Positions 13,304-30,027 of a stretch of DNA of 64,000 bases are shown here, piece by piece. The notes beneath the pieces were generated by a model. The model searched no databases, was not told the origin of the DNA, and saw only the letters and a program-made list of their open reading frames with translations. Both the position numbers and the translations under genes were made by a program. This DNA comes from an uncultured Candidatus Marinamargulisbacteria bacterium (GTDB lineage: Bacteria > Margulisbacteria > Riflemargulisbacteria > GWF2-35-9 > DYQY01), in assembly GCA_964429235.1 (NCBI GenBank), contig CAYSAQ010000002.1:230952-294951 (forward strand), read 5' to 3'. Positions within the stretch are counted from its first letter, which is position 1; every line of letters starts with the position of its first letter.

Positions 13304-14131
13304 CTAGAACAGCTCTTTCGCTTGTTTAAGCGTTCGGCAGCCTATTAGCGTGAAAGAGGATTTCGAAAGAGATTGTGTTTCTTGAAGTATTTGCTGAGGC
13401 AGAGAAAGTTGCGACTTGCTAGCAGATTCTTTTTGAGTGCTGATAGTATTTTGTAGCTTTCCCCAGTTATGATTGTTTTTCCCTTGATAGAAAAAGTTTT
13501 TAGCAGATTTATTTGGGATATCTTCCGTGGTTTTAAATTTATCTAAGAGTAATCCTCCTTGAAAAGTTCCATAAGTAATTGTTTGTATGTTTTTTTCTTT
13601 GCAAAAAGATAGGATATTGTATGTTTCTTCTGTGCTTATAAGAGAGAATTGCAGCTGAACTGTATCTATATGGCTTAATAGCTCAAGATTTTGAAGTTCT
13701 TTTAGTGATAAGTTGCAGACTCCAATTTTTTTAATAATCTTTCGTTCCTTAAATGATAAAAGAGTTTCTATTGCTTTGTCCGTTGAATAGTTTGGATCTG
13801 GCCAATGAATTTGATATAAGTCTATTTGCTCTTTTTGTAGTCTGCGAAGTGAATCAATCAGCTCTTTCTCTAATGATTTTTTTTCAAGGTTATGAAAGAA
13901 GCCTTTTTTTGTATGAATAAGCCCGCATTTTGTGGCGATCTTTATGTCGCCTGTATTATCTTCTATCGCTTGCCCAACTATAGTTTCAGAGTGACCGTCA
14001 CCATAGACAGGAGCAGTGTCGATAAGAGGGATGTTCTTTTCTATAGCATATCGAATAACATTAAGGCTTTCAGGGTCTTTAACATCACCCCAAAAGTGTT
14101 TTCCAAATTGCCAAGTACCTAGTCCAATCAT
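13304..14131 (-). CDS. aldo/keto reductase family oxidoreductase
   Basis: MIGLGTWQFG...IDTAPVYGDGHSETIVG...IHWPDP are classic AKR motifs. Start overlaps the upstream gene by 4 nt. Confidence 0.85.
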   Translation of the reverse strand: MIGLGTWQFGKHFWGDVKDPESLNVIRYAIEKNIPLIDTAPVYGDGHSETIVGQAIEDNTGDIKIATKCGLIHTKKGFFHNLEKKSLEKELIDSLRRLQKEQIDLYQIHWPDPNYSTDKAIETLLSFKERKIIKKIGVCNLSLKELQNLELLSHIDTVQLQFSLISTEETYNILSFCKEKNIQTITYGTFQGGLLLDKFKTTEDIPNKSAKNFFYQGKNNHNWGKLQNTISTQKESASKSQLSLPQQILQETQSLSKSSFTLIGCRTLKQAKELF

Positions 14132-15213
14132 AAATGGGTAAAGACCTTTTCATTGAACCACTTTTCAAATTCTTCATTATCTTTGAAGTTGAATCCAAAC
14201 ACATTTTTCCAAATGGTTGGTGATTCCATACATAAATATACAAATTGATCTGGGTGGTGATTCTTGATAGCATCAATTAGTTCTTTATATGCTTTTTCTC
14301 GACGAAATCGAAGGTACCTGAATTTCTGGTCATCAGCCAAAATAAACTCATCCATATACAAGGGGCTCTTCCTTATGAAGGTTGGTTTTAGTCCTTTTGT
14401 GAATCTAAGGGTTCCTATGCTAATCCATCTTATTTTTTCTTTAGGGATTATTTTATAAATTTTATTTATTGTATTTTTGTAATCATCTGTATAATCCTTA
14501 TAAAGAATTACTGGGTCAAAATGAAAAGCAACATCATAACCATGGTCAGTGATTTTTTTAGCTGCTTTTAATCTTTCATCAAGAGAGGGAGTGTCTTTTT
14601 CAGAAGAGTTTGTCACAAGTTCTGAGTTTACAGACCAAGCAACTATAATGTTATTGGCTGGTTCTATTTTAAGTAGATTTTCGATGCTAACTGATTTTGT
14701 TTTAAGTTCTAGTATAACATTTTTGTGATCCTTAAAGACATTCACTAAGTCTGTAGAAAGTTCGCTTATTTCATCAGCAATAAGGCTGTCTGTAAATTCT
14801 CCAGTGCCAATCCTGTATAGTTGTTTGCTGTTTATGTAATTTCCAATTATGTTTTTCTGCATATAGCTTGTGGTATCCGTAAAAACTGATATTGATTCTG
14901 TTTTTAAGTAGTCTTGAAGAATGCAATATGTGCAGCCAAAGCTACAATTGTGACCAACATTAAGTATTCTGTAGTTGCAACAATGATATTTCGTTGTGCC
15001 AGGGCACATAACAACAGGATCCCCTTTTAGTTTGGTAAGAAGTAGTGTGTTTGGTGAGTCATGGAGTGCTAATATTTCTTTTAGATTATTATCCTCAAAA
15101 TATATCTTTTCTGCATTGGGTAATTTATTCAGCACCCTTTTAGTAATGACATCATTGACTACAAAATTGTTAATTAATAGTTTCGTGAAGTTATGAATAT
15201 TTTTATTTATCAT
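14128..15213 (-). CDS. spore photoproduct lyase family radical SAM protein
   Basis: 361 aa with a CxxxCxxC cluster (NCSFGCTYC, Cys 90/94/97), the same spacing and position as SplB. Overlaps both neighbouring genes by 4 nt. Confidence 0.8.
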   Translation of the reverse strand: MINKNIHNFTKLLINNFVVNDVITKRVLNKLPNAEKIYFEDNNLKEILALHDSPNTLLLTKLKGDPVVMCPGTTKYHCCNYRILNVGHNCSFGCTYCILQDYLKTESISVFTDTTSYMQKNIIGNYINSKQLYRIGTGEFTDSLIADEISELSTDLVNVFKDHKNVILELKTKSVSIENLLKIEPANNIIVAWSVNSELVTNSSEKDTPSLDERLKAAKKITDHGYDVAFHFDPVILYKDYTDDYKNTINKIYKIIPKEKIRWISIGTLRFTKGLKPTFIRKSPLYMDEFILADDQKFRYLRFRREKAYKELIDAIKNHHPDQFVYLCMESPTIWKNVFGFNFKDNEEFEKWFNEKVFTHL

Positions 15214-27844: not shown

Positions 27845-29332
27845 ATGAAAATATCTTTTATATTCACACCTTTTTGTGCACCAACTTTTGTTCCTTATTA
27901 TCTTTGTGAGTTGATTGGTTATTTGTACGCAAGAGGTTTGGATGCTGACTGTTCTATTTTTGATTGGAATATCGAACAGTTTCAAAGAAGTTTGGGAGAT
28001 TTGGCTGAGGTAAAAAGAATAAAGTCCGGTGATTGGAGTAGTTATCTTGATGATAGCTATAGGGTCGCTCATCAGTGGCAAAGAATACAGGAGAAAACAG
28101 AGCTGGAGCTGGAAGCATATTTGAGAAGAGCAGGAAGTGTTCCATCAATTTTTGCCATGGTTGATGAAGAGATAGAATTTTCAGAGTTTGTTTGTTTGTC
28201 GCTTACATTTAACCACAGAGGTGGTGCATCACAGTTTTACCCAACAATTGCGTTAGCTAAATACATAAAAAATAAATGGCCAGAAAAGAAAATAATTCTT
28301 GGAGGAGCATATTTAAACCATATTGGCCGAGAGCAATTAATTAAAATATTTACCGAAATTGACTTTGTTTTATATAGAGAAAGTGAAGAAAGTTTGTTTT
28401 TATTACTTAACGAGACGGAAACAAACAAACAATTAATCCCTAATATGGTTTTCCGAGATAAGGGCAATATTATTACAACCGAACAAGTGGATAATGTTCA
28501 GCGGCAATTAGACTATGTGCCAATATTTGAGGGCATAGAGTTTGATAAATATTTGTCGCCAGAAACTAGTGTTGCTATTCAATATAAAAGAGGTTGTGAT
28601 TGGGGAAAATGCACTTTTTGTTCGCAGAATAATACATATTTCTTGAAACCAGAAGTTAATCAACAAGGCTTTACTAAAAGAGTAGAGGCTTTAAAGAAAG
28701 AAGGGGTTAAGTTTTTGTTTTTGGCAGATCAGATGATTTCACCCAAAGACCTAGCGTTTATTAATTCTGTTTTGGGCGATAGCTTTTTTTGGGCGTGTAT
28801 GATGATGCCGCAGAAGGGCATATCCGGGCAATTGCTAGAAGAAATGTATGCGTCTGGATGCCGGTGGATATGTTGGGGAATAGAATCCGGCAGTAAGGGT
28901 GTTTTGAAAAGCATGAATAAGCCAATGGATATAGAAGTAGCGAAGGCAAATATTATAAATGCTAGCCAATCAGGGATAAAGAATGTTCTTCTGATGATAG
29001 ATGGATTTCCCACAGAGACAGAAGAGGATAGAAAACAATCGTTAGATTTTTTAAAAGAAATGAAACCATATTATTATGATAATTCGCTTAGTCCTTTTCA
29101 TGTATGTCAGGGTTCTTATGTGCAAAATAACCCTGCAGAGTTTGGCATAGAGAAATTATCACGTGTTCCTATCTATAAAGATGATGAGAAAATATTATAT
29201 TCAGAACTGTACTCGTATTCCCCAATGAAAAACATTGAAGTTAATAATGAGGATAGGCGGACAATCCCTTATGCAGAACATATGCTGATTGCTTGCACTC
29301 TTTATAGTGATTTGGCAGTATTAGAACTATGA
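27845..29332 (+). CDS. B12-binding domain radical SAM protein
   Basis: 495 aa. N-terminal about 240 aa has a B12-binding-like layout, followed by the radical SAM cluster CDWGKCTFC. Confidence 0.75.
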   Translation: MKISFIFTPFCAPTFVPYYLCELIGYLYARGLDADCSIFDWNIEQFQRSLGDLAEVKRIKSGDWSSYLDDSYRVAHQWQRIQEKTELELEAYLRRAGSVPSIFAMVDEEIEFSEFVCLSLTFNHRGGASQFYPTIALAKYIKNKWPEKKIILGGAYLNHIGREQLIKIFTEIDFVLYRESEESLFLLLNETETNKQLIPNMVFRDKGNIITTEQVDNVQRQLDYVPIFEGIEFDKYLSPETSVAIQYKRGCDWGKCTFCSQNNTYFLKPEVNQQGFTKRVEALKKEGVKFLFLADQMISPKDLAFINSVLGDSFFWACMMMPQKGISGQLLEEMYASGCRWICWGIESGSKGVLKSMNKPMDIEVAKANIINASQSGIKNVLLMIDGFPTETEEDRKQSLDFLKEMKPYYYDNSLSPFHVCQGSYVQNNPAEFGIEKLSRVPIYKDDEKILYSELYSYSPMKNIEVNNEDRRTIPYAEHMLIACTLYSDLAVLEL

Positions 29333-30027
29333 AATTATTTTTTACTAGGTTAGGGAAACGAGAACGTCATGTTTTAGACGGAATAACTTCTTTAGAAGTA
29401 CGGGAAGCTAGAGTTTTAAAGACATCAACATATTCAAAAGTTCTAGTGAGTAAAAAATTACGTATAGTTTTAAAGGTTTATAAAGATAAGAGCATGGCCC
29501 ATAAAGTACTTAAAAAATATAGATATCTTGAAAGAAGAAGATTAGATAAGTTTTTTGTAAAAATGTATGGACTAGTTGAGATAGATAACGAGTGGATAAT
29601 TGTTATGGACTATTTGGGAATAAGCTCAAGTAGTGAAAGCTTGAAGTCGATGTATGATATGGATCAGAAGAAATGCATAAGGATGATAAGTAAGGCAATA
29701 AGGGCAACGAATAGTAGTGGCTTTTTTCATGGTGATTTAGATCATTTTGGCAACTGGTTTGTTTATGAAGGTATGCCAGTTTTTATAGATATAGATAGAT
29801 CACAGATAGTTAGGTTTAATGTTTTTAAGCGCGTGTATTTTTCTGTTGAGGATAGGATAGGAATTTGTTTAGCATTTCTTATTATCTTTGGTAAAAATAA
29901 AGGTTTCAGGTATGCGAAGCAACTGATCCTTAGATACAGTTTGTTCTCTTTTATTTGGTGGCCATTAGTAGCTGAGTCGCTTAAAAGGTGGTTAATTAGT
30001 CAAAGGTTTTTTAAGATAGAAGACTAG
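29329..30027 (+). CDS. small atypical kinase-like protein (Kdo kinase / RIO / Bud32-like fold)
   Basis: 232 aa with IVLKVYKDK (beta-3 Lys-like), WIIVMDYLG (hinge-like), FFHGDLDHFGNWFV (catalytic-loop-like) and FIDIDRS (DFG-equivalent). ATGA overlap with the radical SAM gene. Confidence 0.5.
   Translation: MKLFFTRLGKRERHVLDGITSLEVREARVLKTSTYSKVLVSKKLRIVLKVYKDKSMAHKVLKKYRYLERRRLDKFFVKMYGLVEIDNEWIIVMDYLGISSSSESLKSMYDMDQKKCIRMISKAIRATNSSGFFHGDLDHFGNWFVYEGMPVFIDIDRSQIVRFNVFKRVYFSVEDRIGICLAFLIIFGKNKGFRYAKQLILRYSLFSFIWWPLVAESLKRWLISQRFFKIED

Follow-up and report, generated by a model that had tools for sequence, protein, structure and literature searches.

Overlapping genes for a class-B-type radical SAM protein and an orphan kinase-like protein in Margulisbacteria: a candidate facultative operon neighbourhood

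The stretch of DNA analysed here (64,000 nucleotides of contig CAYSAQ010000002.1 from an uncultured Candidatus Marinamargulisbacteria bacterium, hereafter the window) carries two adjacent genes on the forward strand, which code for a 495-aa radical S-adenosylmethionine (SAM) protein and for a 232-aa protein with the traits of a minimal kinase, the start codon of the second lying inside the stop codon of the first (Table 1). An earlier reading of the letters, here called the original prediction, had described them as a B12-binding radical SAM enzyme and a Kdo/RIO-like kinase joined in a translationally coupled module; the two open reading frames (ORFs), the ATGA overlap, and the motifs quoted there are all present in the sequence. 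L numbers designate below the genomes and contigs compared; the relatives that carry comparable loci are annotated as Marinamargulisbacteria or Termititenax metagenome-assembled genomes and belong to Candidatus Margulisiibacteriota, a candidate phylum without cultured members that includes animal and protist symbionts.

Table 1. Features of the locus with their positions in the window, and order of the genes in the lineages compared; (-) marks the reverse strand and a slash follows the divergently transcribed gene
Feature	Position	Strand	Remarks
Radical SAM gene	27845..29332	+	ATG start, 495-aa ORF, present in sequence
Kinase-like gene	29329..30027	+	ATG start, 232-aa ORF, present in sequence
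ATGA stop/start overlap of both genes	29329..29332	+	kinase ATG inside radical SAM TGA, direct sequence reading
N-terminal Rossmann-like, B12-binding-like domain	27845..28519	+	about aa 1-225, helical insertion aa 41-109
Predicted [4Fe-4S] cluster motif CDWGKCTFC, aa 251-259	28595..28621	+	CX4CX2C spacing
Predicted ATP-anchoring beta3 lysine K49 (in VLKVYK)	29473..29475	+	invariant in 4/4 lineages
Catalytic loop HGDLDHFGNW, aa 134-143	29728..29757	+	H134, D136, H139, G141, N142, W143 invariant, overall identity 29-33%
Predicted metal-binding loop IDIDR, aa 153-157	29785..29799	+	I153, D154 (DFG-Asp equivalent), D156 invariant
p540, 540 aa	26133..27755	-	divergently transcribed; position is the phosphatase promoter side in relatives; LPD3 match weak, below cutoff
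p396, 396 aa	30127..31317	+	disordered N-terminus, DGKLGP peptidoglycan-binding-like motif, weakly T4-lysozyme-like C-terminus
p364, 364 aa	31418..32512	+	no Pfam family; N-terminus resembles L009 Peptidase_M15 protein, 33% over 170 aa
Gene order, window			p540(-) / radical SAM - kinase - p396 - p364
Gene order, L002			SixA-like phosphatase - radical SAM - kinase - p404 - p423
Gene order, L009/L010			p542(-) / phosphatase - kinase - Amidase_3 (1220 aa) - Peptidase_M15
Gene order, L011			p545(-) / phosphatase - kinase - Amidase_3 - YkuD_2

In this compact genome, the coding density of the window is about 94%, the intergenic gaps flanking the pair measure just 89 and 99 nt, and the GC content of the locus equals that of the remaining window. 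A promoter and terminator scan gave nothing beyond shuffled expectation, with no terminator in the interval between the kinase gene and p396; no cobalamin riboswitch or other Rfam element lies upstream, and no Rfam family reaches its gathering score in the whole 64 kb. The ATGA overlap is identical at the corresponding junction of L002, and the two genes are probably co-transcribed and translationally coupled. The original prediction had taken the overlap as an argument for co-expression and also for a shared function; the former is plausible, whereas the latter is weakened by the fact that, among the window's 43 pairs of genes on the same strand, 14 overlap (5 of the 43 by 4 nt), functionally unrelated pairs included. 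Because overlaps are so common between unrelated genes of the window, the 4-nt junction is here weak evidence for a shared function, and the general lesson is that in a 94%-coding genome a stop/start overlap tells little on this point. A second radical SAM gene of the window, spore-photoproduct-lyase-like (14128-15213, reverse strand), overlaps an aldo/keto reductase gene (13304-14131, reverse strand) by 4 nt.

The 495-aa protein matches the Pfam family Radical_SAM (PF04055) with 50.5 bits against a cutoff of 29.5. The three cysteines of the predicted cluster motif (C251, C256, and C259) are invariant across 41 aligned relatives, and their spacing, one residue over the canonical CX3CX2C, is common to 17 of the 41; this cysteine triad, a GG motif, and GxES-type motifs are conserved. 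The AlphaFold model obtained from the 41-sequence alignment has a pLDDT of 90.3 and a pTM of 0.91, and Foldseek returns full-length matches to MgmA (9CCB), TsrM, TokK, OxsB, AprD4, and CysS with E-values of about 1e-16 to 1e-14, the alignments spanning 450–570 columns with MgmA, TsrM, TokK, OxsB, and CysS. The same set of structures is found when the PDB is searched with the family profile, with MgmA as the best match (E 2e-40); 9CCB, the MCR glutamine C-methyltransferase (MgmA/QCMT), is thus the nearest solved relative.

The B12-binding profile support anticipated by the original prediction was not obtained, since the radical SAM protein has no direct match to Pfam PF02310 at E<=1; the precomputed match is missing in four close orthologues too and is present in more distant relatives. 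The N-terminal domain nevertheless displays an alternation of strands and helices in the model, aligns with the PF02310-bearing relatives, and contains a G153-G154 pair that is invariant in 41 sequences. In addition, the NCBIfam matches all belong to class-B families, which are those with a B12 domain, and their alignments begin at about aa 130, within the N-terminal domain. A class-B layout, in which a Rossmann domain is followed by the radical SAM barrel, is therefore supported in the structural model by the fold match together with transitive homology, and this part of the original description stands.

The assignment to a named family is another matter, since the class-B cutoffs of NCBIfam are all missed, in detail by ApyD (86 bits against 750), PhpK (83.5 against 600), rSAM_ocin_1 (79 against 282), MgmA/TIGR04014 (70 against 360), HpnJ (58 against 578), and BchE (51 against 481); the top matches are peptide C-methyltransferases. 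As regards features of ribosomally synthesised and post-translationally modified peptide (RiPP) systems, there is no match to PF05402, the PqqD-like recognition domain, and the flanking gaps leave no room for a precursor peptide gene. The only orthologues found, in searches of a collection of 5.8 billion proteins and by a metagenome scan, are 56% identical in L002, 42% in L005 (another Margulisbacterium), and 41% in L006; the metagenome scan gave only relatives of 23–31% identity, none with the kinase. By these comparisons, the protein represents an uncharacterised, rare class-B subfamily with CX4CX2C spacing, standing alone among housekeeping genes. Since the orthologues and distant relatives are alone among such genes and the nearest characterised relatives are methyltransferases, it probably carries out cobalamin-dependent C-methylation, with a common cellular substrate and not a natural-product intermediate as its target.

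In L006, a gene for a 230-aa, C-terminally short QueG-like protein lies 5 nt 3' of the radical SAM orthologue (L006:11533-12225; also L007:4368-5060). The QueG-like protein matches TIGR00276 with 195.4 bits (cutoff 200), a gene for a cmoB-like methyltransferase is close by, and the GC content of L006 is 44%. These neighbours hint at a B12 or tRNA-modification context of the orthologue.

The 232-aa protein has homologues at 29–36% identity in three other lineages, in which the neighbouring genes keep 58–81%. The residues that are invariant among them include, besides those of the predicted ATP-anchoring lysine and of the catalytic and metal-binding loops, M1, T6, and G9 of the N-terminus; between the two closest copies the ratio of nonsynonymous to synonymous substitutions (dN/dS) amounts to 0.22, with dS unsaturated (0.42). 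This conservation, and for the radical SAM protein its orthologues, mark both ORFs as genuine genes and not products of chance. The window protein is basic, with an isoelectric point (pI) of about 10, and the family ranges from 8.6 to 10. The Pkinase profile is weakly matched by all four members, and the RIO1 profile (PF01163) is reached over its cutoff by one of the four, the window protein (25.6 bits against 22), in a partial alignment that covers profile positions 80-152 of 187. For Kdo/WaaP (PF06293) there is no match at E<=1 with the window protein and none at E<=0.1 with any of the four members, and the Bud32 models are missed (TIGR03724, 19.5 bits against 125; NF011464, 19.8 against 246); one relative is labelled Bud32 by JGI. 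A single-sequence search of the PDB gave no significant match, whereas the family profile finds eukaryotic-type kinases at an E-value of about 4e-4; most of ten distant matches tested from an exhaustive hidden Markov model (HMM) search are Pkinase-domain proteins, and the matches of the fold search are nearly all kinases.

These lines of evidence, weak when taken singly, are mutually consistent and support membership of the 232-aa protein in the protein-kinase-like superfamily, as the original prediction had it from the key elements of the fold, of which K49, D136, N142, and D154 are invariant in the four lineages; its narrower label was less fortunate, the RIO assignment being marginal and the Kdo assignment unsupported by sequence profiles. 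Because the ATP lysine, the catalytic Asp, the Asn, and the metal-binding Asp are all kept, the protein probably transfers phosphate, and it would be an atypical phosphotransferase because it is devoid of both a glycine-rich loop and an alphaC glutamate: glycine is absent from the nucleotide loop (KTSTYSKV / SSSKKATIY), and the predicted helix 54-63 contains no conserved acidic residue. In addition, the Asp-to-Asn spacing in the catalytic loop is 6 instead of the 5 of canonical kinases. Anchoring of the C-terminus to the membrane by its hydrophobic helices was also considered and rejected, since the maximum 19-residue hydropathy of 1.34 was judged too low for a transmembrane helix, for which the usual Kyte-Doolittle cut-off is about 1.6.

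A word-index search of a clustered collection of 5.8 billion sequences and an exhaustive HMM search over 1.84 billion representatives place the kinase family in only four complete Margulisbacteria lineages, with one further truncated copy. The latter lies on a 946-bp metagenome contig (L052:1-336), is 57% identical to that of L009, and loses similarity right after FFHRDIA, inside the catalytic loop, so that a truncated pseudogene and a chimera of the assembly are the two explanations for it. By sequence comparison, the four lineages thus define an orphan minimal kinase family with invariant catalytic residues and an atypical nucleotide loop and alphaC helix.

The chromosomal locus is syntenic between lineages and occupies the same site in all of them, within a shared backbone that has aminotransferase, AI-2E transporter, and NYN genes at one end and genes for flavin reductase, ferritin, and Mfd at the other. 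Mfd, NYN, and ferritin are 90–94% identical between L002 and L009 (Mfd 90%, NYN 94%), 68–81% between L002 and the window (Mfd 77%), and 67–81% between the window and L009; the branching order that follows is (window,(L002,(L009,L011))), with the window as outgroup. From this order it follows that the radical SAM-kinase arrangement, including the ATGA overlap, is ancestral and that the L009/L011 branch lost the radical SAM gene; for the phosphatase gene that lies 5' in the relatives, the order implies either a loss on the way to the window or a gain by the sister branch.

For the conserved module suggested by the original prediction the outcome is mixed: the kinase is conserved, but the two genes are together in only two of the four lineages known for each. 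In particular, the kinase accompanies the radical SAM gene in the window and in L002 and occurs without it in L009/L010 and L011; reciprocally, the kinase is missing beside the radical SAM orthologues of L005 and L006 and at 33 loci of more distant relatives. No operon partner accompanies the orthologue of L005, the gene following that of L006 is the short QueG-like one, and some of the distant relatives are solitary genes next to polA or ubiA. A kinase HMM scan of 47 sequences gave matches in the four kinase lineages only and none in the other loci. Each gene occurs without the other, and what emerges is therefore a loose operon neighbourhood, not a proven two-enzyme pathway.

Among the genes around the pair, the most regular neighbour of the kinase is a 164-aa SixA-like histidine phosphatase, which lies directly 5' of the kinase or of the radical SAM-kinase pair in three of the four lineages (L002:9503-9997, L009:4100-4594, and L011:1813-2307), and no copy is present in the 64-kb window. 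Its best NCBIfam match, sixA, scores 51.7 bits, below the cutoff of 74.5, and the protein carries the RHAKS...GHN motifs of histidine phosphatases; it is 65–89% conserved, with dN/dS of 0.11–0.15. In L002, the phosphatase, radical SAM, and kinase genes are tightly packed, with 3-nt and overlapping junctions.

The genes 3' of the kinase vary among lineages. In L009 and L011 they code for annotated peptidoglycan enzymes of the Amidase_3, Peptidase_M15, and YkuD_2 families (L009:5373-10548; L011:3085-9313), and in the window and L002 the similarities of p396/p404 to peptidoglycan-binding and T4-lysozyme-like proteins, in both Pfam and PDB, are sub-threshold. p396 is 42–45% identical to the 404-aa protein of L002 (p404), and its homologue is absent from L009 and L011 and was not found near L005 or L006; it is confined to loci that also hold the radical SAM gene, a co-variation that comprises just two cases. 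As a whole, the varying genes resemble a polymorphic set of cell-wall effectors, as far as their sequences indicate. At the position of p364, L002 carries a gene for an unrelated 423-aa P-loop NTPase (L002:13568-14839) with weak STAND/AAA and weak PADLOC mad8 matches.

On the 5' side, homologues of p540 are 52–54% identical in L009 and L011, and none is present in L002, where the NYN gene is directly followed by the phosphatase gene. The NYN protein (window 25379-26074, reverse strand) is the most conserved of the locus, with 81–94% identity between lineages, and along its whole length it matches the phage family phrog_5783 (E 2e-77). On the scale of the whole window (1-64000), the GC skew is positive in nearly all 2-kb bins and the cumulative skew climbs almost throughout, with no replication switch point.

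The interpretation towards which these data lean, with modest confidence, is that of a facultative ancestral operon neighbourhood, whose genes would be co-expressed but separable, and not of an obligate two-enzyme pathway. The class-B radical SAM enzyme would perform cobalamin-dependent C-methylation of a common cellular substrate, and the kinase, as the invariant core of a variable locus, would act as a phosphotransferase; where the SixA-like phosphatase is present, the two may form a reversible phosphorylation pair. The kinase lies upstream of variable genes, which code for annotated peptidoglycan enzymes in two lineages and for a protein of sub-threshold lysozyme-like similarity in the other two, and the radical SAM-kinase arrangement is taken as ancestral to the clade, with later loss of the radical SAM gene in L009/L011. 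Several points weigh against this interpretation. AprD4 has the same architecture as the radical SAM protein and is a diol dehydratase, not a methyltransferase, so that fold alone cannot fix the chemistry; AprD4, moreover, functions without cobalamin. The structure model of the kinase is of low confidence (pLDDT 64), and the co-occurrence counts, with four known lineages per family, are tiny statistics. The genomes lacking one of the partners are metagenome-assembled and may be incomplete, but the radical SAM gene is cleanly gone from the syntenic site. Finally, the overlap is conserved over substantial divergence, and the L002 arrangement may be a true, loss-tolerant functional unit of three genes.

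An obligate pathway in the sense of the original prediction, in which the radical SAM enzyme and the kinase would act sequentially on one small molecule or envelope precursor (a precursor of lipid, LPS, or peptidoglycan, or a metabolite), for example by radical methylation and then phosphorylation, is considered unlikely. In its favour, two genomes with only 77% identity in Mfd both keep the ATGA overlap, purifying selection acts on both genes, and cell-wall-related genes lie 3' in every lineage, although their support is sub-threshold for the window and L002; aminoglycoside and phosphonate pathways also bring together class-B radical SAM enzymes, phosphotransferases of the kinase fold, and phosphatases. 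Nevertheless, the persistence of the kinase in L009/L010 and L011, where the radical SAM gene is missing, and of radical SAM orthologues without the kinase in L005 and L006, is difficult to accommodate in an obligate scheme, to which the locus adds neither further clustered biosynthetic genes nor a Kdo/WaaP profile match, and overlapping junctions are common between unrelated genes of the window. It is quite improbable that the 232-aa protein serves as a scaffold or pseudokinase, or performs other chemistry on a kinase fold, with a regulatory link to the radical SAM protein or none: the invariance of K49, H134, D136, N142, D154, and D156 at about 30% identity is hard to explain without catalysis, and the dN/dS of 0.22 speaks in the same sense, even if the missing acidic residue of the predicted alphaC, the nucleotide loop without glycines, the catalytic loop one residue over the canonical length, the low-confidence model, and the fast evolution of the protein (29–36% identity versus 58–81% for neighbouring genes) are what would be expected of it.

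A distinctly improbable proposal is that of an ancestral three-gene cassette, intact in L002 and with components lost per lineage, in which a class-B radical SAM methyltransferase, a minimal kinase of a new, Margulisbacteria-confined family as writer, and the SixA-like phosphatase as eraser would serve one macromolecular target by radical C-methylation and reversible phosphorylation, candidate targets being the adjacent secreted peptidoglycan-hydrolase-like proteins or tRNA/rRNA. Every link in this proposal is circumstantial. L002 holds all three genes, tightly packed; the nearest solved relative, MgmA, methylates a protein glutamine, and the top NCBIfam matches are peptide C-methyltransferases; the homologue of p396 comes and goes with the radical SAM gene, but the orthologues of L005 and L006 have neither p396 nor the kinase in their vicinity, and that of L005 is without an operon partner. 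For an RNA target one can point to the very basic kinase (pI 8.6–10), to the similar-sized ArkI, which phosphorylates tRNA, and to the QueG-like gene after the L006 orthologue with a cmoB-like gene near; however, the ArkI motifs HGQ and DFE are absent from the kinase, and both a RiPP recognition domain and room for a precursor peptide gene are missing. Hardly any credence is given to an anti-phage defence or mobile-element cargo module. The defence role that the original prediction had left open finds no defence-system profile support in PADLOC, which has no model matching the kinase, the phosphatase, p540, or p396, and in which the weak match of the radical SAM protein to the candidate PDC-M51A (29 bits) amounts to generic class-B similarity; the locus does form a variable island with conserved genes around it, next to an NYN protein that matches a phage protein family and with a weak LPD3 match in p540, but its GC content equals that of the remaining window, the flanking synteny is chromosomal, and the island stands at the same site in all lineages. 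A phage origin of the pair was likewise rejected, the kinase having no PHROG match and the radical SAM protein only a generic weak one.

Both proteins are divergent, unassigned branches of well-known superfamilies, brought together in a lineage-restricted and facultative pairing, and each is a sensible candidate for biochemical de-orphaning. A common substrate of the pair, or of the triad that includes the SixA-like phosphatase, would, if real, connect radical chemistry of the cobalamin type with reversible phosphorylation. The original prediction had not recognised the pairing as a described pathway, and in agreement with this a literature search found none that matches it; the search returned unrelated papers only, which makes this a weak negative.

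Known systems can be compared with the single components. The RIO/Bud32 minimal kinases are similar in size (about 230 aa) to the window kinase and have HGDL...N and ID.D loops like it, and the nucleotide loop of its relatives, SSSK[KN][AS]T, resembles the RIO motif STGKEA; in contrast, the window kinase family is without a conserved alphaC glutamate, its catalytic loop is longer by one residue, and no Kae1/KEOPS or ribosome-biogenesis genes occur in the neighbourhood. ArkI is a minimal kinase of similar size which phosphorylates tRNA and is characterised by an HGQ triplet, a DFE metal loop, and a C-terminal YKR motif (PMC9095486). Membership among ArkI-like RNA kinases was rejected, since the present family has H-x-D and D-x-D in place of HGQ and DFE; with the tRNA 2'-kinase ArkI, as with the minimal kinase effector OspG, there is no significant sequence similarity, and the analogy is functional only. 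As for SixA, the phosphatase of the relatives shares its histidine-phosphatase motifs but scores under the sixA cutoff, and the window is without a copy.

A further parallel is offered by the class-B radical SAM enzymes. According to a recent review, OxsB, TsrM, TokK, and the MCR glutamine methyltransferase form one architectural class with the canonical motif CXXXCXXC (PMC12931638). The window protein shares the two-domain fold of MgmA/QCMT (9CCB), TsrM, TokK, OxsB, CysS, and AprD4 over its full length, with a TM-score of about 0.6, and differs from these enzymes in being only 12–15% identical to them and in the CX4CX2C spacing of its cysteines.

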